Shown: positions 5,328 through 57,762 of the stretch, piece after piece
Layout of the letters: each line of letters begins with the position of its first letter
Numbering within the stretch: position 1 is the stretch's first letter
Origin: Deltaproteobacteria bacterium
GTDB taxonomy: Bacteria; Myxococcota_A; Polyangia; Polyangiales; Houyiibacteriaceae
NCBI GenBank assembly: GCA_034670305.1
Contig: JAXMNT010000010.1
Span: forward strand, 1 to 64,000
DNA: 64,000 nucleotides
Reading direction: 5' to 3'
The notes under the pieces: model-generated
Seen by the model: only the letters and a program-made list of their open reading frames with translations
The model's database searches: none
What the model was told of the DNA's origin: nothing
Made by a program: the position numbers and the translations under genes

Positions 5328-8300
5328 TCCGCGGCCTCCGCTTCGGGCGCGGCCCCACGGCTCAAACCTTCGAGCGGCTCCGGCAGAGGCAGCGGGGCCG
5401 CTTCGACCACGGTGCCGCCATGTTCGCGAAGCGGCGGGTACTGAACGTCGTTGAGCCGCGTGAGCGCCTCGCGAAGTTGAGCGGTCCAGCGGTTGAAGAT
5501 GCGCAGCTCGATCGCGCGCTGGTAGCCGCCTTCGAACGCCTCGAGGGCACGCTCTTCCATCGGCACGATGAACTGCGCGAGCTGGTCGAAGTAGACTTGC
5601 TCCTCTTCTTCGGTGAGCCCTTCGGGCACCTGGAAGCCGCGCATCGCTTCGGCGAAGAGCTCGTAGCTTCGACCGATCTGGAAGAGCGAAGCGCTGACCC
5701 ACTCAGCCACGCCGAACTCGACCACGTCGGCGTAGATGAGCGCCGCGCGCTGCAGCAGCTCCGACTTGCGCTGCAAGCGCTGCCGAAGTCCCTCGCTGGG
5801 TCCGGCGATCTCGATGCCCGCGTACTCGGTCAGGACCGCATCGCCCTGGAGGTAACGCGCCTGCGCGCCATAGTAGAGGCCCGGACCGGTGAGCCTGCGG
5901 CGCTGACGGCGTGCGGTGCGCACCGCCTGTTCGAGGGCCGCCGCCGACGCGCGTTCGTCGCCACCCCGCGCAAGCACCTGGGCGAGCCGGGTCTGGGCCT
6001 CGACCTTGCGGTCCTGGTCGCGTGTCCGGCGAATGTACTCGCGGTAGGTGTCCGCCGCTTCGGACCAATCCTCGTTGCCTTCGTGGGCGCGCCCGATGAA
6101 GAAGTAGACGTCGTCCGCGTTCTCGTGGCGCGGGTACCGTTCGAGGTAGTAGCGGCCGACGACGATCGCTTCGTCGTTGTCGTTCGCGGTCATGCGGAGC
6201 AGCACCGCGTTGTAGGTGGCTTCGTGCGCCTTCTCCGCCTCGCGGAAGTGTCGGCCGTAGGACTCGTAGAAGCGCGCGGCGTCGCTGAACTGCGCGATCG
6301 ACTCGTACATCTGCGCGCCCGCCCACGCACCGAGGGCGCCTTCGCTCGAGCCCGGGTATCGGTCGATCAGCAGCTCGTACGCTTCCGCGGCGCCGCCGAG
6401 ATCACCGGCGCGCTGCCGTTCGAGGCCCGCGTTGTACACCGCCTGACGGGAACGTTCGTCCTCGGGGAACTCCTCGGCCGCTCGCAGGTACGCGGTCGCG
6501 GCTTCCGCGTGCTCGCCACGCTCGGCCAGCTGCTCACCGACCTTGAACATCGCTTGGAGGATCAAGGTGTCGAGGCGCCGTTGGCTCTCGTCGCTCGAGA
6601 ACGCGGGCGCGTCTTTGAGCCGGCGGGCCCAGGTTTCGATGTTCCCGTAATCCTGCGCGCGGTTGAAGCTGTCGAGGATGAGCTCACCGGCCGGGTTGGC
6701 GTACTCGCTCTCCGGGAACCGCTCGAGCAGCTGCCCGAAGAGCCGCACCGCCGGGTCGTAGATCTGGCGGTCGTAGTAGAGCCGGCCTTGGCGGAACAGG
6801 ATCTCTGGAAGGTCCGGGTCCTCTGGGAAGAGCTGCACGTAGAGCTCGATCGCTTCGCCGAACTTCCGGTCGTTGCTCGTCTCGCCCGAACACGGGTCTT
6901 CGGAAGGCGCGGCTTCCGCCGGCTCTCCGTCCTCGTCCTCGTCCTCGTCCTCGGCGTCGTCGTCGTCTGCGACCGGCGTGGGCGTGGGTGTGGGTGTGGG
7001 CGCAGGTGCTGGGCGGGTCCCGCCGGAGCAGCCCTCGACCTGTTCTTCGCGGACCCGCTCGAACGCGCCGATCGCGTTGTAGAGCGCGTCTCGGGTGAAC
7101 TCGCCTTCCGGGTTGCGGCGCGCGGCCGCGAGGTAGGAGTCGCCAGCCTCCGGGTACCGCTGCAGCCGGTGGAAGAGGATCTCGCCTCGGTAGAACTGCA
7201 CCTCGTAGCCGTGTTCCGTCTCGCCAAAGTGCTCGAGGTACATGCCGTAGAGTTCGGCGGCTTCTTCGAACTTGGGCTGCTGCCGTTCGCGCTGACCGAT
7301 CTCGTGCACCCGCATCGCGTGGCGTCGGATCATGCGTTCGGCCCGGTCCACCTCGCGCTGAACCCGCTCGGGATCGCCCTGCTGGCGGGCCCAGTCGCTG
7401 TCCGTGCCGTAGGTCTCCGCCAACGTCCGCATCGCGGCGATGGTGCCTTCGCGGTCGTCGACCGCTGCGAAGCTGGAAGCGATCTGTCGCTGCCACTTCG
7501 GGGCTTCGCGCGCACCAGGGTCCATCTCGAGCAACAACTCGAACGCTTCAACCGCGCGCTCGTAGCGCGACTGGCCCATGTAGGTGTCGCTGAGGCGCAC
7601 GAGCACCCGGCGGCCGTAGCGTTCGCCGCCGATCTCCTCGAGGAAGGCGAACACATCCCGCGCGGTGTTCGACTCGTCTTCGATGAACACCTGGATCAGG
7701 TAGTCGAGCGCTTCGTTCTGAAGCTCCCGAAGGCGGTTGCGCTGAGCCGCCGAGAGATCGCCACGCCCACGGCCGAGATCGAGCACCTGCCGGAACCGCA
7801 GCGCCGCGTCGTCGGTGCGGCCCATGCGCCAGAGGCACCACGCACTCTTGAAGAGCGAGATGTCGTAGAGCTCACTCTCTCGGTGCTGCAGGACGTGTTC
7901 GTACTGCTCGAGGGCGGCGGCGTACTGCACCGCGCCGAACTGCTCTTCGGCATGCGCGAAGTAGGCGTCCGGCACGAACCGGCTCCGCGGGAACTCGTCG
8001 AGGATGCGGCGGTACAGCCCCATCGCACCGACCGTGTCGCCCCGCTCCACGAGCGCGTACGCCTTCATGTAGAGGACGAGATCGTACCGATCGAACGCGC
8101 GGTGCTGGGTGAGGATCCGGTCGTAGAGTTCGAGCGGCCGGCGGTAGTTCGGAGTCGGCGTCGGACCGCGGTTGGCCTCAGGGACCTCCTGCCAGGCGGC
8201 GAAGGTCTGCAGGTACTCGACCCGCGCGGTCTCCCAGAGAAGCTCCGCCAACCGCAGGAGGGCGTCCGGCATCTCCGCGGCCCGCTCCGGTTCGACCCGC

Positions 8301-13037: not shown

Positions 13038-14384
13038 TCAGACGGCTTTCCAACAGAACGGGCACACGTCCTTCGGACCGTCGAACACCGCGTCGCAGTG
13101 TTTGCACTTCCGCCGGAAGCGGATGGTCGGATCCCGCTCGCCGCGCGGTTCGGGCAGATCGTGGAGCAGCACCTTCAACCCCTCGGCCGCCGTCGGGTCG
13201 GCGGGCACCAGATGCACCGCCGGGAACTCGCTGGTCGGCGCTTCGTCGAGCGGAGAGAACACGTCAGGCAAGGAACTTCGTTCCGGCGCGGGCGCAGGAT
13301 CGGGGGCAGGATCGGGCGGGGGCGGGTTGGAACTCAATCCCCCGCCGCTGATCTCCAGGACCGGATCGTCCTCGTCGCGGTCGGCCTCGGCCCCCGCGTC
13401 GGCCTCGGCCCCTGGGTCGGCGCGGTCCGCGTCGGGGCTGTCCGCGTCGGCGCTGTCCGCATCGGCGTCGGCCGCTTCCACGTCTTCGTCTTCGTCTTCG
13501 TTCGCGCTGGGCTCTTCGGGTTCGGCCCGGCGAATGATCACGATTTCCGGCGCGTCGGCGTCGCGTCGGCTCTCAGGCCGTGCGCGCAGGCTGGGTGTGG
13601 GCCAATCCTCGGCGGTCACCGCCTGCACCTCGAGCACGATCACCGCGACGTTGTCGCGCGCCTTCGCCGCGTGCGCGATGTCGAGCAGCAGTTTGACCTG
13701 GGCGTCCGGTCGCAGGTCCTGGCGGAGCGCGTCCGCGATCTGCTCTTCTTCGAGCTGATCGGTCAACCCATCCGAACAGAGCAGGTACCGGTCACCAGGC
13801 GCGAGCGCGATGGACTGCATCGCCACGCGCACGGTCGGCTCCATGCCGAGCGCCCGGGTCACGACGCGCGTGGGGAGCTTTCGGGCCTTTTCGTCGTCGA
13901 GCTCCGGCGCGAGCTCCAGGACGTCGTTGGCCAGGGAGTGGTCTTGGGTCAGCAGCTCCACCAGGTCGCCCCGGAGCCGGTAACAGCGGGAATCCCCCAC
14001 GTGTCCGAGGTGCAACACCGCCCGCTCGGTCTCCACGAAGGTCGCCACGACCGTCGTGCCCATGCCGCGGTACCGGTCCGATTCGCGGGCCAGCTGGACG
14101 ATGTCGGCGTTGGCGCGGTGAACCGCGGCACTCAGACGCCGGGCGGCACTCGGCACTCCGAGCACGTCAAACGTCGGCGTTTTGGCGTCTTTCGTCTCTT
14201 CGAAGCGGTGCGCGATGCTTGCCAGCGCCATGCTGCTGGCCACGTTGCCCGCGTTTTCGCCGCCCGCGCCATCGGCGAGACAAAAGAGGTCGAGCTCACG
14301 ACGCACGAGGATTGCGTCCTCGTTGTGCTCTCGTTGACCGATGTGCGTGTCGCCAGCGGCGACGATCCGAACGCGAGGTGCCAC
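13038..14384 (-). CDS. PP2C-family Ser/Thr phosphatase with acidic tail and C-terminal CxxC..CxxC
   Basis: G.R..NED, ADGAGG, GMGTT, HVGDSRCY, LCSDGL and DN motifs. Confidence 0.9.
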   Translation of the reverse strand: MAPRVRIVAAGDTHIGQREHNEDAILVRRELDLFCLADGAGGENAGNVASSMALASIAHRFEETKDAKTPTFDVLGVPSAARRLSAAVHRANADIVQLARESDRYRGMGTTVVATFVETERAVLHLGHVGDSRCYRLRGDLVELLTQDHSLANDVLELAPELDDEKARKLPTRVVTRALGMEPTVRVAMQSIALAPGDRYLLCSDGLTDQLEEEQIADALRQDLRPDAQVKLLLDIAHAAKARDNVAVIVLEVQAVTAEDWPTPSLRARPESRRDADAPEIVIIRRAEPEEPSANEDEDEDVEAADADADSADADSPDADRADPGAEADAGAEADRDEDDPVLEISGGGLSSNPPPPDPAPDPAPAPERSSLPDVFSPLDEAPTSEFPAVHLVPADPTAAEGLKVLLHDLPEPRGERDPTIRFRRKCKHCDAVFDGPKDVCPFCWKAV

Positions 14385-15635: not shown

Positions 15636-15736
15636 CGAAGTCGCAACGCCACGCGTTCGGGGACCGCTTCCTGCCGCTCGGTCGTTTGCCAAGAAGGCGC
15701 AGAGCGGCAGGCGCTGGGACGATGTGGCGACGGAGC

Positions 15737-15890
15737 CAGAATCAGAACCAGAACCAGAATCAGAATCAGCGGCAGCGGCATCGGCAGCGGAAGCGGCAGC
15801 GGCAGCGGCAGCGGCAGCGGCAGCGGCATCGGAAGCGGAAGCGGAAGCGGAAGCGGCAGCGGAAGCAGAAGCAGGAGCGAAAGCAGAACG
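15737..15890 (+). repeat. Hexamer microsatellite (CAGAAY then GCGGCA/GCGGAA)
   Basis: Read directly; downstream flank of four-helix-bundle gene 1. Confidence 0.9.
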
Positions 15891-15921
15891 GCCGGCGCCC
15901 GCGTGGACGCCGGCCCCGCCC

Positions 15922-16236
15922 TCAACGGCTGAGCTTGTAGAGCATCGCGCACACGTGGTCGCACTGGTCAAGCAGCCCCGCGTCGAGGTCGATGTAGCCG
16001 AAGACTTCAGCGAGCTGCATCGCCGCCTTCAGCTCGCTGCACTCCCCATAGGCAATCGAGAACTTGTCATGGCAACGCAGCCCTCGCGCCTGCCGAGCCT
16101 CCGCGATGTTCAACACCACGCTCTGCGCCGCCCGCTGCATCTGCGAAGCGAGCGAAGCGTCGTGCTTCCGCACGGCCGGCAGGACCTGAGCGCGAAGCGA
16201 GCGCACCAGTTCAAAAGAAGTTCGTAGAACGATCAT
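15922..16236 (-). CDS. Four-helix-bundle protein (23S rRNA IVS protein / bAvd-like family), copy 1
   Basis: LASQMQRAAQSVVLNIAE...FSIAYGECSE motif; 104 aa. Confidence 0.9.
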   Translation of the reverse strand: MIVLRTSFELVRSLRAQVLPAVRKHDASLASQMQRAAQSVVLNIAEARQARGLRCHDKFSIAYGECSELKAAMQLAEVFGYIDLDAGLLDQCDHVCAMLYKLSR

Positions 16237-16259
16237 CGGAGACCCCAGTGTGAAGACGA

Positions 16260-16467
16260 CCGAGCGACGTTGCCCGGCGGCCGCAGGCCGCCGTCGTCTG
16301 GCGGGTCAGGGGTCAAGGGCGAAGCCAGCCTTCCGAAGGCTGGGGGCCGCAGGCCACCCTTGAGGCCTGGCACGCCAGATGACACGCTTGATCACCCGCC
16401 GGGCACCACCCACCCCCCAAGGTCGTTCCCGAATCCGAAGGAGAGGGAGCCGAATCCGAAGGAGAGG
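16260..16467 (+). promoter_or_regulatory. Conserved stem-loop element with -35/-10-like boxes and an SD-like motif (copy 1)
   Basis: Stem 16293-16319/16357-16383; TTGAGG-N17-CACGCT; GAAGGAGAGG present twice. Confidence 0.6.
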
Positions 16468-16471
16468 CTAC

Positions 16472-16569
16472 ATGCGGAAGCGGAAGCGGATGCGGAAGCG
16501 GAAGCGGAAGCGGCAGCGGATGCGGAAACGGAAGCGGCAGCGGCAACGGAAGCGGTAGTGGTAGCGGTA
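16472..16569 (+). repeat. Hexamer microsatellite (GCGGAA/GCGGCA/GCGGAT)
   Basis: Read directly; same orientation as 15737-15890. Confidence 0.9.
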
Positions 16570-24192: not shown

Positions 24193-26384
24193 GCGCGTCC
24201 CGGACTGGTAGGGCGCGCTCCATCGGTTCGCTCGCGTTCGCGTTCGCGCTGGTGAGTTGCGCCGGCTGGTACGCCGCGCTCCCATGGCGCAGCGGGGCGG
24301 GGTTCGGGACGGCGGCGCTGGGGTCGGTCGCGTTTGGCGTGCTGGTCGCCACCGGCCTGCAGCGCAGCTCGTTCGCGCTGGGCACCGGGCCGGCGCGTCG
24401 GGTGTGCCTCGCGGCAGCCGTCGTGTGCGGCGTGCTCTTCGCGAGCGCGCGTGGCGACCACGTGTTCGCGAGCCCGTCCGCACCGGTCGACCGCATCGAA
24501 CCGCGCATTCACCCCGCGGTCTTGCGGGACGACCGGCCGCAGCGGTTCTACGTGACGTCGGACGCGGCCGAGGTCGCGCTCGCGCTCGGCGCGCATCGTT
24601 TCGAAGGCGAACCCCTCGGAGACGGGTTGCACCGCATCGACGTGGACCCGGTCGACGCACCGCGCGCCGTCTCGCCGATCCTGATCGTGGACGGCCGCGC
24701 GCAAGACGATCGCGTGGAGCGGGTACCCGCGACCCGGGCATGGAGCTGGCCGTGCGTGGCTCCGGATGGGCGGTACGCGGTGGTCAGCGAAGCCACCGAC
24801 GAACGCCTCGACGCGGCTCCTGGTGTCTCGGCGTCGGTGCGGGCCACACGGGACCGGCCGGTCGGATGCCTGCTCGGCGCGACGTCGTGGACCGCGTACG
24901 CGGACGGCACCCTCGAGTCGGCGGGGGCGCGCCTGCAACTGCCGGGACGCGTTCGCGCCATCGTCTCGATGGAGTGGGGCGAGGAGCCGCGGTGGGCTGC
25001 GAGCGGCATCCACGCGTCCGGCGCCGAGGTCGTCTGGTTCGGGCACGGCGCCGAACTCTTGTCGGAGCACCCGATCTCCGCGCCGGCCGAGCACCTTCAG
25101 GCCACTGGTTCTGGCGTGGCATTCGCGACGCCGTGGCGGCGCGGACACCCGCCGGCACTCGTGCACCTCCGGACCGACGGACGCCTTCACCAGCTGCCGC
25201 TTGACCGGCCCGCGACCTCGATCGCAGCGCACGGCGACACGCTCTGGTTCACGACCACGAGCTTTGGCGCCACGGCGCGTCTCCGCGACAACCACCACGT
25301 CGCACCGCGGCTCGTCGCCGTGCGCTTGCCGGAGCTCGCGTTGGTCTCGCTCACCGAGATCGAGGACGGGACCATCCTCGGGGTGGTGGACGGCGCGCCG
25401 ATGCTCGATGGCGAGGCGGCGCCTCTGGCGGGGGGTGCGTCGCCGACTTGGGTGGTGGGGCTGCCCGCCGAAGGCGATGCAGATGCAGAAGCAGAAGCCG
25501 ATGGCGAAGCCGAAGCCGATGCCGATGCAGAAGCAGAAGCCGATGCCGATGCCGATGCCGATGCCGATGCCGATGCAGAAGCCGATGCCGATGCCGTAGC
25601 CGATGCCGAAGCAGAAGCAGAAACGGCGACAGGGACAGCAACAGCGGCAGCGGCCCGGGCGGTGCTGCTGTTTGGTTCCGTCCGCGACGCCGGCATGGAG
25701 CTGCGCGACGGAGCGCGCGTGGTGCGGGTCGATCCGCCGGGCGAAGCTGTGGATGATCGCGCGGCGGCGCGGCAACGGGGGCAACGTGCGTTCTTCGAGA
25801 ACAGCCGGGCGGGCGTCGCGTGTGCGACCTGCCACACGACCCGAGGCGGACAGCCCGTCGCCGACTGGATGCGCTACGACATCGGCCAGCCGGTGATGCG
25901 CCCCACCCGATCGGTCGCGGGACTCGCCGGCACCGCGCCCTTCTTGAGGGACGGGAGCTACCCGAACCTCGGTGCATTGCTCGAGTTCCCAGAGACCGTC
26001 TTCGGGGGGTACGCACGGCGCTCTGACACCCGGGCCGAAGACCTCACGGCGTACCTGGAGTCCCTGGTGGTGGAAGCAGGTCCACGTCGCGCGCACGAAC
26101 GCGAAGGGTGGTTGGTCTTCCAGCGCGCGGGCTGTCCAGACTGCCACGCGCCACCCGCCTTCACCGATCGACGCACCTACCGGGCCGCGCGGATCGACCC
26201 CACGTTGCCGCCCGCACTCCAGCTCGACACGCCCTCTCTGCGTGGGGTGGGCGCGGGGCGGCTCCGGCTCGATGGACGAGACGACCTCGACTCATTCTTG
26301 CGCGCGGCCGATCACGAAGGGCTGCGCGGGGGGCTGACTTCCGTCGAACGCGCCCACCTTCGCGCGTTCCTCGAAATGCTCTAG
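24180..26384 (+). CDS. Membrane-anchored protein with propeller-like region and C-terminal di-heme cytochrome c domain
   Basis: N-terminal TM helices; CATCH...TAPFLRDGS and CPDCH...DTPSLRG, resembling di-heme peroxidase/MauG-type domains. Confidence 0.7.
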   Translation: MDRLSASRTGRARSIGSLAFAFALVSCAGWYAALPWRSGAGFGTAALGSVAFGVLVATGLQRSSFALGTGPARRVCLAAAVVCGVLFASARGDHVFASPSAPVDRIEPRIHPAVLRDDRPQRFYVTSDAAEVALALGAHRFEGEPLGDGLHRIDVDPVDAPRAVSPILIVDGRAQDDRVERVPATRAWSWPCVAPDGRYAVVSEATDERLDAAPGVSASVRATRDRPVGCLLGATSWTAYADGTLESAGARLQLPGRVRAIVSMEWGEEPRWAASGIHASGAEVVWFGHGAELLSEHPISAPAEHLQATGSGVAFATPWRRGHPPALVHLRTDGRLHQLPLDRPATSIAAHGDTLWFTTTSFGATARLRDNHHVAPRLVAVRLPELALVSLTEIEDGTILGVVDGAPMLDGEAAPLAGGASPTWVVGLPAEGDADAEAEADGEAEADADAEAEADADADADADADAEADADAVADAEAEAETATGTATAAAARAVLLFGSVRDAGMELRDGARVVRVDPPGEAVDDRAAARQRGQRAFFENSRAGVACATCHTTRGGQPVADWMRYDIGQPVMRPTRSVAGLAGTAPFLRDGSYPNLGALLEFPETVFGGYARRSDTRAEDLTAYLESLVVEAGPRRAHEREGWLVFQRAGCPDCHAPPAFTDRRTYRAARIDPTLPPALQLDTPSLRGVGAGRLRLDGRDDLDSFLRAADHEGLRGGLTSVERAHLRAFLEML
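25475..25655 (+). repeat. In-frame hexamer repeat (GCCGAT/GCAGAA) encoding (AD/AE)n
   Basis: Read directly inside CDS 24180..26384. Confidence 0.9.
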
Positions 26385-49718: not shown

Positions 49719-49748
49719 GGGACCGTAGCAGGCACAGCCTGCGGAGGG

Positions 49749-50083
49749 CCCTTGCCCTTGCCCCTGCCCTTGCCCGTGCCCTTGCCCTGCCCTTGCCCCT
49801 GCCGGTCGTCACAAACAGAAGCAGAAGCAGAAGCAGAAGCAGAAGCAGAAGCAGAAAACAGCAACGGTGTGAGCAACGGCAGACAGCCGCAGAGTCCGCA
49901 GCCGCAGCCGCAGAGTCCGCACAGCTTCCTGCGCAGTCGATCTCTGAATCATCCGCTCAACCCCAACCGGGCACGGGCAAGGGGAAGGGGTAGGTCGCTT
50001 TCGCTCCACCCCAACCGGGCACGGGCACGGGCGGGCACGGGCAAGGGCAAGGGCACGGGCAAGGGGTAGGTCGCTTTTGCTCC
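49749..50083. repeat. Composite intergenic repeat: (CCCTTG)n, (GCAGAA)n, and two tandem CCCCAACC-(GGGCAM)n-GGGGTAGGTCGCTTT units
   Basis: Read directly. Confidence 0.85.
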
Positions 50084-53440: not shown

Positions 53441-53560
53441 GGGAGAGCGACCTGTGCCCGTCCCCCTTGCCCCTCCCGTGCCCGTGCCCGCGCCCCTGCC
53501 CGTGCCTTGCCCGAGCCCGTGCCTTGCCCGCGCCCGTGCCCGTGCCCGTGCCCGTGCCCT
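53441..53560 (-). repeat. (GGGCAC/GGGCAA)n tract ending in AGGTCGCT on the minus strand
   Basis: Reverse-complement member of the dispersed repeat family, upstream of pdhA. Confidence 0.75.
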
Positions 53561-56448: not shown

Positions 56449-56659
56449 GGGGATTTGTAGCGCGCTCCATAAGTCGCGCCCATCTCGTGTGCGATCGAGA
56501 GGCGTGATGTAGAGCACAGCCGATGCCGATGCCGATGCCGATCTCTCCGCGCAGGGGATTGGTCGGTGACTGCCAACGGTCACGGCCCCCGTGAAGTCTG
56601 GACGGCATCGGCCTGGCCCTGCGCGCCGGCATGACTGCGGCCGGCGGCGTCCCACATCG

Positions 56660-56733
56660 CGGCGTCGGCTCGGTGTCGGCTTCAGCTTCGGGATCGGGGT
56701 CGGCGGGTATCGGTCGGCTTCGGAGTCGGCGTC
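56660..56733 (+). repeat. Degenerate (TCGGCN)n tract
   Basis: Downstream flank of four-helix-bundle gene 2; same orientation as 57398-57745. Confidence 0.6.
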
Positions 56734-56776
56734 ATGGAATCGGGCAGTGCGTCCGGAGACGCACCGCCCGCGCGGC

Positions 56777-57088
56777 CTAGGACCGACTCAGCTTGAACAA
56801 CATCGCGCAGACGTGGTCCGCGAGGTCGTACACGTCCTCCCCTGCCTCGACGTACCCCATGACCGCCGCGACCTGCAGGGCGGCCTTTACCTCGCGCGCC
56901 TCCCCGAGAGCACGCGAGAACCCGTCCGGGTTCCTCCCGCCCCGCGCACTCCGAGACTCCGCAATCAGTAGAGGAACAGCCTGCGCGGCCCGCCGCAGCT
57001 GCGACTTCAGCGACGCCTCGCGAATGCGAGGCAAGACCTCACGCACCAGGAGCGAGAGAAGTAGAAGCGACTTGTCGAATACCAGCAT
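56777..57088 (-). CDS. Four-helix-bundle protein (23S rRNA IVS protein / bAvd-like family), copy 2
   Basis: LKSQLRRAAQAVPLLIAE...FSRALGEARE; shares DHVCAML(Y/F)KLSR with copy 1. Confidence 0.9.
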   Translation of the reverse strand: MLVFDKSLLLLSLLVREVLPRIREASLKSQLRRAAQAVPLLIAESRSARGGRNPDGFSRALGEAREVKAALQVAAVMGYVEAGEDVYDLADHVCAMLFKLSRS

Positions 57089-57109
57089 CGAGAACCTGCC
57101 TTGTGTGCG

Positions 57110-57386
57110 CCGAGCGTGAACTCGCCCGAGGGCGCGAAGCGCCCCAGTGGTCGGCGGGGTGGCGGGTCAAGGACGAGCAAGCGCCGCTTCAGCGGCGCGC
57201 CAGCGAAGCGGCGGGCATCCCGCCGGGCCTCTTTCCTGGGGGCACAGCCCCCAGACCCCGTCCCAGTGACGCGGCTCGATCGCTTCGCTCGACTTCGCCC
57301 CGTCGGTGGCCTCCTTGAGGCGCCGCCCCGCCGACCGCTACGCTGGACCATCCATCGGGCCAGCCAACCTCCACGAGAAGGAGAGG
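57110..57386 (+). promoter_or_regulatory. Conserved stem-loop element with -35/-10-like boxes and an SD-like motif (copy 2)
   Basis: Stem 57146-57173/57312-57339; TTGAGG-N18-TACGCT; GAAGGAGAGG. Confidence 0.6.
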
Positions 57387-57397
57387 TTGAGCGAGCG

Positions 57398-57745
57398 GCC
57401 TCGGCTTCGGCTTCGGCTCCGGCTTCGGGTTCGGCTTCGGCTTCGGTGTCGGCTTCGGCTTCGGTGTCGGCTTCGGCGTCGGTGTCGGCCTCGGCTTCGG
57501 CTTCGGCTTCGGCATCGGTGTCGGCTCCGGCTTCGGCTTCGGCTTCGGCTTCGGCTTCGGCTTCGGCTTCGGCTTCGGCTTCGGCTTCGGCGTCGGCGTC
57601 GGCGTCGGCTTCGGCTTCGGCGTCGGTGTCGGCGTCGGGGTCGGCGTCGCTCAGCTTCGGCGTCGGCGTCGGCTTCGGCGTCGGCTTCGGCTTCGGCGTC
57701 GGCTTCGGCTTCGGCTTCGGCGTCGCGGCTTCGGCTTCGGTTCGG
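57398..57745 (+). repeat. Long hexamer microsatellite (TCGGCT/TCGGCG/TCGGTG)
   Basis: About 350 bp, read directly. Confidence 0.95.
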
Positions 57746-57762
57746 CCTGGGCTTCGTTAACG

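Follow-up and report, generated by a model that had tools for sequence, protein, structure and literature searches.

Hexamer-bordered cassettes of a four-helix-bundle gene in a Polyangiales genome, a possible free-standing counterpart of gene-bearing rRNA intervening sequences

Two loci of the window analyzed here, a stretch of 64,000 nucleotides (positions 1–64,000 of contig JAXMNT010000010.1, assembly GCA_034670305.1, Deltaproteobacteria bacterium; contig C10 in this text), each contain a gene for a small four-helix-bundle protein of the PF05635/TIGR02436 family bordered by hexamer microsatellites. On balance, we consider it probable that the loci are copies of an amplified, free-standing gene cassette of the intervening sequence (IVS) type, that is, a counterpart of the 23S rRNA intervening sequences that carry an open reading frame (ORF). 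The cassette consists of a leader of ~230 nt with three predicted nested helices, a gene for an Avd/S23p-like protein of ~104 aa and a GC hairpin, with arrays of short tandem repeats as its borders. The IVS-type reading is preferred because loci with inverted arrays in other Myxococcota, as well as one subfamily of the genome under study (subfamily D), match the IVS design outside rRNA genes. In the other three subfamilies (A–C), which include both loci of the window, the arms would no longer be inverted and would have grown to hexamer microsatellites of 50–360 bp, with a long stem within the leader instead.

The genome (G000; 7.93 Mb, 68% GC, 105 contigs) was searched with the family profile and 47 PF05635 matches were found. 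By sequence, they were assigned to four subfamilies, namely A (the type of copy 1 in the window; 9 matches), B (15), C (the type of copy 2; 13) and D (10), with several subfamily-D copies being broken or located at contig ends. The proposal of a repeated, self-contained module, made earlier from the two loci of the window, was borne out by this genome-wide collection, since the other paralogues carry tracts and a stem too. Alignments of each family, which extended from 1.3 kb 5' to 0.6 kb 3' of the stop codon, showed a column identity of 0.85–0.95 over the leader, ORF and hairpin. Outside this core, a repeat-driven intermediate identity was found on both sides, followed by unrelated sequence at 0.4–0.5, and a BLAST search with both units yielded the same limits. 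Homology between the ~47 copies, which occupy unrelated loci, thus stops sharply at the tracts. Alignments of subfamilies A–C revealed no shared terminus beyond the outer tract ends, and the sequence outside is unique.

Several leader fragments without a gene were also found (C18:54428–54595, C1:200855–201074, C2:198685–198766, C54:5109–5183, C25:65529–65603 and C67:22630–22685). They are mostly 5' parts of A-, B- or C-type leaders, although the C18 match spans much of the structured core; at least two of them (C1:200855 and C2:198685) abut tracts, and these fragments may be remnants of cassettes. A search for remnants from the tract side gave 123 "solo" matches, a number inflated because the library held a 78-nt element from one broken B copy; only the leader-5' and hairpin matches among them were usable.

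The elements of the two loci are listed below. Tandem repeats were called using Tandem Repeats Finder (TRF).

Copy 1
15736–15888: tract 3' of the gene, (CCAGAA)5.7 and then ~20 units of the GCGGCA/GCGGAA type (TRF, sequence)
15890–15915, − strand: terminator-like GC-rich hairpin of 11 pairs with a T-rich tail, directly 3' of the stop codon
15922–16236, − strand: gene of 104 aa, PF05635/TIGR02436 four-helix bundle (Avd/S23p-like), subfamily A
16237–16473, − strand: leader of 237 nt, its 5' part being a degenerate TTCGGN repeat
16265–16406, − strand: structured core of the leader, predicted nested helices P1–P3 closing a junction with small hairpins
16437–16446 and 16458–16467, − strand: tract–leader junction with two copies of CCTCTCCTTC (GAAGGAGAGG on the + strand)
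16474–16567: tract 5' of the gene, (GCGGAA)15.7 (TRF, sequence)
Copy 2
~56660–56733: degenerate TCGGNN tract 3' of the gene
56742–56769, − strand: hairpin 3' of the stop codon (sequence)
56777–57088, − strand: gene of 103 aa, PF05635/TIGR02436, subfamily C
57089–57395, − strand: leader of 307 nt with the P1–P3 plan of other subfamily-C leaders, broken by an insertion
~57230–57307, − strand: 78-nt palindromic element, resembling a repetitive extragenic palindrome (REP) or a miniature inverted-repeat transposable element (MITE), in the first inner hairpin loop of the leader
57377–57386, − strand: tract–leader junction with CCTCTCCTTC (GAAGGAGAGG on the + strand) within a small hairpin
57396–57756: tract 5' of the gene, (CGGCTT)60, 361 nt (TRF, sequence)

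Comparison of the sequence, TRF calls and ORF lists showed the same order of elements at both loci, namely tract, hairpin, gene, structured leader, CCTCTCCTTC motif and tract. This order had been noted in the original prediction together with the homology of the two proteins, the unrelated neighborhoods and the lack of a transposase or reverse transcriptase (RT) gene inside the module, and all four statements hold. The proteins share 57% identity over 88 residues (E 1e-31). Copy 1 is flanked by genes for an MFS-HEAT-cNMP protein and a pseudopilin-like ORF, copy 2 by genes for a Met-zincin and a GNAT-nitrilase, and neither a transposase nor an RT was found within the cassette. Read on the + strand, copy 1 is bordered by GCGGAA/GCGGCA units and copy 2 by units of the CGGCTT type, both in direct orientation. 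The hairpin after the stop codon of copy 1 is kept throughout subfamily A, with loops that vary, and the CCTCTCCTTC pair of copy 1 belongs to the leader start GTAGCCTCTCCTTCGGA conserved in subfamilies A and B. A distance of 12 nt separates the end of the upstream tract of copy 1 from the TAG that terminates the upstream gene. The downstream arm of copy 2 is weak (TRF calls only 56660–56681, with a score of 37). The leader of copy 2 is longer than that of copy 1 because the 78-nt element was inserted at ~57230–57307; the remaining subfamily-C copies do not contain this element and align straight over its insertion point in BLAST.

An Rfam scan of the window gave no match at the gathering thresholds, and no rRNA gene was found around either locus; at 15880–16480, there was only a chance miRNA match (E 0.37). 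A peptide encoded by the tract, starting from a Shine–Dalgarno-like GAAGGAGAGG and ATG on the + strand of copy 1, was considered and rejected, since the six other subfamily-A copies that keep the junction lack the ATG there.

The leader was found to be conserved better than the synonymous sites of the gene: in the same pairs within families, leader identity was 0.90, 0.87 and 0.86 vs. 0.72, 0.75 and 0.67 at third codon positions. The leader is thus under selection. Analysis of 21 leaders of subfamilies A and B using RNAalifold predicted 36 pairs, of which 11 vary at both positions. Paired cells amounted to 96.9% vs. 38–46% with slid partners, compensated pairs to 11 vs. 3–4 in the controls and the covariation score to 0.258 vs. 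0.025–0.084; none of 500 shuffles matched the observed pairing or covariation score. These values are to be read with the fold being derived from the same alignment, and the independent covariation events are few because most changes separate A from B. The argument for structure rests on covariation, as the fold of a single sequence (copy 1, z −0.99) is uninformative at this GC content. In the predicted fold, three nested long-range helices close a junction that contains a GGCC-loop-GGCC hairpin as well as one or two hairpins that vary. The innermost helix, CAAGGG/CCCTTG, is followed by an invariant TTGAC, and the 3' helices are predicted to pair with GGAG/GGGG just 5' of the start codon. The subfamily-C leaders follow the same plan with compensatory variants of their own, e.g., GGTCGGCGGGG/CCCCGCCGACC vs. 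GGTCTGGGCGG/CCGCCCAGACC.

A covariance model (R1) was built from the A and B leaders alone and searched over 52 sources. The leader of copy 1 scored 140.9 bits in the sense and 32.8 bits in the antisense orientation. Matches were obtained at 10 of the 11 subfamily-C loci searched (E 1e-7 to 3e-11), at five of six loci of the related genome G013 (E 1e-8 to 7e-6) and at several loci of the related genome G012 (E 3e-5, 7e-5, 0.003, 0.01 and then weaker), each of them just upstream of the gene and on the sense strand. The model missed copy 2, whose leader is interrupted, and gave no match among six loci of the genome G002. The innermost helix shows covariation among the copies of G012 (AAAGGG/CCCTT, AAACCCC/GGGGTT and AAAGGCC/GGCCTT) with TTGAC being fixed. 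The leader stem may serve as a processing or regulatory site.

Both proteins of the window exceed the curated cut-offs of the family profiles, with scores of 55.4 (copy 1) and 41.9 bits (copy 2) for PF05635 (cut-off 33.8) and 58.7 and 42.5 bits for TIGR02436 (cut-off 24). The closest solved chain in a sequence match is the pentameric XCC0516 (2GSC, E 1e-5). The family motif RxxxSxxxNxxE, as given in the available text of PMC3936711, is present in copy 1 (R-AAQ-S-VVL-N-IA-E) and retained in part in copy 2, where R and E are kept and A and L replace S and N. According to the accessible parts of the corresponding reports, proteins of the PF05635 family were found within 16S and 23S inserts of bacteria of the candidate phyla radiation (CPR) (PMC11270868) and between cas genes (PMC3936711), and the family includes Avd, the accessory protein of diversity-generating retroelements (DGRs) (PMC10053308). 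The proteins share with Avd a homologous four-helix-bundle fold family, of which a pentameric relative has been solved (2GSC; PMC10053308, in part), and a nucleic-acid partner is likely. The protein probably acts on nucleic acid, and its own leader RNA or single-stranded repeats are the likeliest partners. Neither protein of the window matched any defence family in a PADLOC scan, and an anti-phage defence system was rejected on this ground.

In subfamilies A–C, 33 of 37 ORFs are intact, and the pairwise dN/dS values within the families are 0.09, 0.13 and 0.06 at dS of 0.53, 0.45 and 0.63. The four-helix-bundle proteins are under purifying selection. Such selection would also be expected of a stable host gene family, with copies made by ordinary duplication and the leader being a cis-regulatory RNA that, e.g., lets the protein control its own synthesis or occludes the ribosome-binding site; the microsatellites, present in many intergenic regions, would then be of the contingency type or insulating. 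We give this explanation a modest chance. It is supported by the divergence between the copies (dS ~0.5, dN/dS 0.06–0.13) and the intact ORFs, by the selected leader whose 3' helices pair with GGAG/GGGG before the start codon in the predicted fold, and by the intergenic tracts occurring genome-wide (1318), one of which lies within 40 nt after the stop codon in 463 of 4196 called genes. It does not account well for the location of the copies at unrelated loci with unrelated neighbors and exact homology limits, for the amplification that occurred independently in each genome, or for the inverted ends, deletion derivatives and assembly breaks of subfamily D described below. In addition, members of the same gene family in other bacteria are inserts in rRNA genes or lie between cas genes, as far as the consulted sections of PMC11270868 and PMC3936711 describe them.

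The association of the genes with the tracts was evaluated over the whole genome, which contains 1318 merged period-6 tracts with a total length of 151,820 bp (1.9% of the genome); 1064 of the 1318 are mostly intergenic according to crude gene calls. A tract was found within 450 nt upstream of 37 of the 47 PF05635 matches vs. 10.5% of 4191 other genes (Fisher p ~1e-27), within 120 nt downstream of 26 of the 47 vs. 16.0%, and on both sides of 19 of the 47 vs. 2.0% (p ~1e-19). At least one tract adjoins 44 of the 47 matches. Hexamer tracts are therefore enriched 3.5- to 20-fold beside PF05635 genes relative to other genes, and the refuting case named in the original prediction, i.e., tracts being equally common elsewhere, did not arise. 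The true tract frequencies are higher, because tracts of 20–24 bp seen in the alignments fall below the TRF score.

These figures bear on the explanation that the adjacency is coincidental and that the cassettes merely occupy intergenic DNA, a compartment made up largely of microsatellites in this genome. The share of tracts in the genome (1.9%), their mostly intergenic position (1064 of 1318) and the absence of a cassette beside at least 95% of the tract segments agree with coincidence. However, the enrichment upstream (37 of 47 vs. 10.5%) and on both sides (19 of 47 vs. 2.0%), the exact junctions and the subfamily-specific, inherited units do not, and the linkage persists both in array-poor genomes (the main-unit pattern gives 0–336 counts in 30 others vs. 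5695 here) and across the Myxococcota sample. Coincidental adjacency is thus strongly disfavoured and, in our estimation, very improbable.

The junctions between the tracts and the cassette are exact: in subfamilies A and B, the upstream tract abuts the leader start GTAGCCTCTCCTTCGGA, and the downstream tract begins right after the hairpin. In gene orientation, the units are of the CCGCTT type on both sides in subfamily A, of the CAGCGG type upstream and CGGCTT downstream in subfamily B, and AAGCCG or ATGCCG upstream and AAGCCG downstream, where present, in subfamily C, while subfamily D contains a fixed 33-bp (CCCTTG)5.5 upstream and its reverse complement downstream. Consequently, the claim that the repeat unit matches on both sides of each gene stands for copies 1 and 2 and fails as a rule, with subfamily B as the exception. 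Three B copies share the last units before the leader (CAGAAG, CAGCAA, CAGCAA, CAGCCT) and differ in the number of units, which indicates that the proximal tract is inherited with the cassette and then slips. The arrays belong to the cassette unit. New copies would arise by duplication of the cassette with its proximal arrays, most likely by recombination, or by template switching, involving similar arrays of different intergenic regions, or alternatively through mobilisation by an enzyme encoded elsewhere.

Two subfamily-B cassettes were found head to tail at C46:57661–59341, ~1 kb apart, with a compound (CGGCTT)n(AGCGGC)n tract between them; this is the outcome that unequal exchange between arrays would give. 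Within the window, further hexamer tracts without a four-helix-bundle gene are located at 709–770, 1827–1932, 6928–7015, 13380–13501, 25467–25622, 49748–50065, 53454–53559 and 56519–56542. They comprise several unit types, and the tract at 49748–50065 is a compound of four units. Among the genes of the genome that are followed by a tract within 40 nt, 48% end with TAG vs. 31% of genes overall.

The family is also expanded in other genomes of the same bacterial family, with 31 PF05635 matches in G012, 17 in G013 and 16 each in G002, G008 and G030. In G012, the nearest complete relative, a hexamer array was found ~200–350 nt upstream of each of the 22 genes, which occupy 19 loci. In the genomes G002, G013, G030, G008, G015, G027 and G004, arrays lie beside the genes at 19 of 20 loci, as read off a table; their units are genome-specific (CAGTGC, CGACTC, AACGGG, CCGTGA), and the genes mostly form convergent pairs bracketed by arrays. 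In these pairs (loci L034–L044 and L046–L051 of G002, G013, G030, G008 and G015), the genes stand tail to tail, with stop codons that sometimes overlap, and the partners fall into different protein clades. In a tree of 88 proteins, all 33 A–C copies of G000 formed one clade (support 0.96), and the copies of other genomes clustered by genome. It follows that the copies were amplified, or homogenised, independently within the individual lineages.

Of 101 Myxococcota genomes sampled from the phylum, 26 contained PF05635 genes, and 28 loci from 24 other genomes were examined. Arrays of units of 6–8 nt or longer were found beside the gene at 26 of the 28 loci, with an array density of 2.94 per kb near the gene vs. 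0.63 in the rest of the same loci. At 14 loci, arrays flank the gene on either side at up to 250 nt, and each of these loci has them inverted, as the two arrays share 6-mers solely as reverse complements.

The closest described systems are the ORF-bearing IVSs, a group that comprises the helix-45 IVS of Coxiella burnetii with its S23p, those of Leptospira, Brucella and Haemophilus, and the rRNA inserts of CPR bacteria. In the available text of PMC4990558, the Coxiella IVS is described as a "selfish" element 428 nt long that comprises an S23p ORF and a 28-bp stem of inverted repeats cleaved by RNase III, with tandem heptamers in strain-dependent number upstream of the ORF; the same article cites a proposal by Ralph and McClelland (1993) that the ORF serves the mobility of the element. 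The cassettes resemble these elements in being small units (~0.4–0.7 kb) with a PF05635 ORF as the sole gene, and in having the ORF bordered by repeats that hold short tandem units in variable number, with insert-like, selfish behavior (PMC4990558, PMC11270868, both in part). The IVS stem is paralleled by the inverted arms of subfamily D and of the 14 two-sided Myxococcota loci (same partial sources). Unlike IVSs, the cassettes lie between protein-coding genes with 47 gene copies in one genome, the arms of copies 1 and 2 are direct and 75–361 bp long, and a conserved structure of ~140 nt is located within the leader. In addition, the cassette ORFs are under strong purifying selection, in contrast to the Coxiella ORF, which is reported to be decaying. 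The protein may bind the leader RNA or the repeat strands, and the leader stem may be processed; protein, stem and repeats may also act together, as the original prediction suggested.

Subfamily D differs from the others in its ends. The genome contains 450 AAGGGC/GCCCTT tracts, 274 of which are exactly 33 bp long, and they form the inner part of two conserved end types. The left end consists of CTAG, a hairpin and then (CCCTTG)5.5, and the right end of the 3' end of the D gene, (CAAGGG)5.5, a hairpin and CTAG; the arms are thus inverted and have a fixed length of 33 bp. Genome-wide, 147 left and 149 right ends were found, with 46 correctly oriented pairs spanning 110–675 nt, and because of these short spans, most are internally deleted derivatives. 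Several D ends lie at contig ends, and many contigs stop inside a D element. The sequence flanking the left end has a period of three bases, which places TAG in the reading frame of the upstream gene as its stop codon; at the D loci, the upstream gene is co-oriented in 7 of 8 cases and the downstream gene convergent in 8 of 8. CTAG itself is ~14-fold under-represented in the genome (1615 sites vs. ~23,400 expected from base composition), and 258 of these 1615 sites (16%) are the D-element end CTAGCAGG. The presence of CTAG at both ends fits a TA duplication, a CTAG duplication or ends borne by the element. By these characteristics, subfamily D looks like a mobile element. One subfamily-D end lies in the window on the − strand (229–314) and consists of CTAG, the hairpin and (CCCTTG)5.5, which is the GGGCAA tract at 229–261; a GAGCAC tract (290–314) adjoins it, and the interior of the element points to the start of the contig.

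Alternatively, the cassettes could be regarded as a non-autonomous transposon, with the arrays being the ends or binding sites of a transposase encoded in trans and the four-helix-bundle gene being cargo or an accessory gene. The inverted 33-bp arms of subfamily D, its terminal hairpins, CTAG at both ends, a left end on the in-frame TAG of the upstream gene, the occupation of 258 of 1615 CTAG sites by CTAGCAGG and the presence of eleven ORFs resembling REP-associated tyrosine transposases (RAYTs) speak for this explanation. We nevertheless consider it unlikely: subfamilies A–C have no conserved termini beyond or within the arrays, no target duplication can be defined, and the candidate movers did not fit. 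An IS630-type transposase, considered for the CTAG ends, was rejected since no DDE_3 match was found in the genome. The 11 Y1-transposase (RAYT-like) ORFs were rejected as movers, as a hexamer tract occurs within 1.5 kb of only 3 of the 11; instead, copies of the 78-nt element, for which BLAST gave 69 hits genome-wide, flank 3 of the 11 (e.g., C20:45086–45234 and C15:126850–126996). The 78-nt element is also inserted in several subfamily-D genes and one B gene.

Inverted ends of MITEs and foldback-type elements can be built of tandem repeats. Subfamily D is similar to them in its inverted ends of tandem hexamers, internally deleted derivatives, preferred CTAG site and assembly breaks, but no matching transposase was identified, and A–C lack inverted ends or defined termini. 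The RAYT-like ORFs and the 78-nt palindromic element, one copy of which lies inside the leader of copy 2, are reminiscent of the REP/REPIN–RAYT systems (REPINs being paired REPs); here, however, the 78-nt element is a separate repeat family, and a scan not aimed at cassettes showed no cassette beside the RAYT-like genes. The long slippage-prone repeats just upstream of the leader, with unit numbers that differ between paralogues, are similar to the microsatellites of contingency loci, but the units are of 6 nt and lie outside the ORF.

Three RT genes were found in the genome (C23:86418–87011, C10:168437–169069 and C67:18832–19467), none of them beside a cassette; the nearest, on C67, is 5 kb away from one and lies among HEAT-repeat and SWIM-finger ORFs. 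The RTs on C23 and C67 match the PADLOC models of retron RT type XIII (E 1e-153 to 1e-155). These genes are relevant to the idea that the cassette is a DGR-like or other retroelement, in which the protein and the RNA would serve an RT that copies the cassette and the arrays would result from RT stuttering. The membership of Avd in the family (PMC10053308, in part) and the structured RNA adjoining the gene are in line with it. A DGR-like mechanism is unlikely, since the RTs found are retron-type and located elsewhere: of just three RT genes, the two scanned are similar to retron type XIII, and unlike in DGRs with Avd, none adjoins or lies inside any cassette. We regard a retroelement as barely credible here.

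A number of observations weigh against the IVS-type cassette. The arms of copies 1 and 2 are direct and therefore unable to fold into the enclosing stem that defines an IVS. The copies within families are old (dS ~0.5) and each is selected, which fits a stable host gene family equally well. A PF05635 match is present within 450 bp of just 78 of the 2374 tract segments, at least 95% of all tracts in the genome lack an adjoining cassette, and G002 contains many CAGYGN arrays without a gene beside them; arrays thus exist and spread without cassettes. The null model of the enrichment comes from a crude gene finder (4198 genes, 69% coding). For subfamily B, insertion into one pre-existing tract is unlikely, because the two sides differ in their unit. 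A scan for sigma-70-like promoters found none around copy 1, and judging by the sequence, a canonical terminator of the upstream gene precedes copy 2, so that expression by read-through is not general. A promoterless hitch-hiker was also tried as a model and set aside: the upstream gene is co-oriented at 17 of 24 A–C loci vs. a background of 59%, which is indistinguishable with crude gene calls.

Finally, the copies of subfamilies A–C, at which contigs break and synteny is lost, revealed neither insertion or excision events nor empty sites or target duplications. Orthologues of the MFS-HEAT-cNMP gene that flanks copy 1 were found in G004 and G012 (65–67% identity) without the pseudopilin neighbor or a cassette, and the loss of synteny with the nearest genomes leaves no empty-site comparison from orthologous loci. 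Contigs from public reads (Logan, four runs) stop at 15725 and 16573 and none bridges the tract; as contigs break at the tracts, excision or length variation is not readable from these runs. Summed over the cassette, the read depth reaches ~10 times the value of the flanks, in keeping with the presence of paralogues, and one X8 contig joins 16216 to 16424 with just 23 letters on one side. The mobility of the cassette is putative.

A bolder reading, which we consider improbable, is that the Avd-like protein and the leader RNA could form a particle homing to short tandem repeats, or seeding and extending them. A hint is provided by G000 having both the most cassettes (47) and the most arrays: matches to the GCSGNN-class pattern number 5695 here, 336 in G012 and at most 102 in the remaining relatives (≤336 in the 30 relatives). 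Over 31 genomes, the counts of cassettes and arrays are correlated with a Spearman coefficient of 0.59, or 0.40 with genome size removed, the genomes being related to each other and the array pattern covering one unit class only. If such a particle existed, the cassette would be a selfish element associated with microsatellites; the hexamer arrays, ~2% of the genome, would originate from it and so, by extension, would the repeat-built stems of rRNA intervening sequences.

Supplements aside, PF05635 genes bordered by tandem-repeat arrays outside rRNA were not described in the literature consulted, nor was a link of the family with bacterial microsatellites; the nearest statement concerns the variable heptamers of the Coxiella IVS, in the available text of PMC4990558. 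New here are the largest amplification known from these data, the variant with direct arms and long microsatellites, the conserved, covarying leader structure common to three genera, and a sister subfamily (D) whose ends resemble those of transposons and lie at CTAG stop codons. Although proteins of the PF05635 family occur very widely, to our knowledge, they have been without a function outside DGRs for thirty years.

The cassettes constitute a rich natural data set: 37 of them fall into three diverged subfamilies, with unit patterns of the tracts tracing descent, a fourth subfamily has ~150 ends and many deletion derivatives, and the structured leader is usable as an RNA model. Three hypotheses thereby become testable, namely that the protein binds the leader or the repeats, that the stem is processed and that the cassette spreads through arrays. 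The results connect the PF05635 family with a bacterial genome that is unusual in its microsatellite load, and they bear on the function of this family outside DGRs and on the origin of gene-bearing rRNA intervening sequences.

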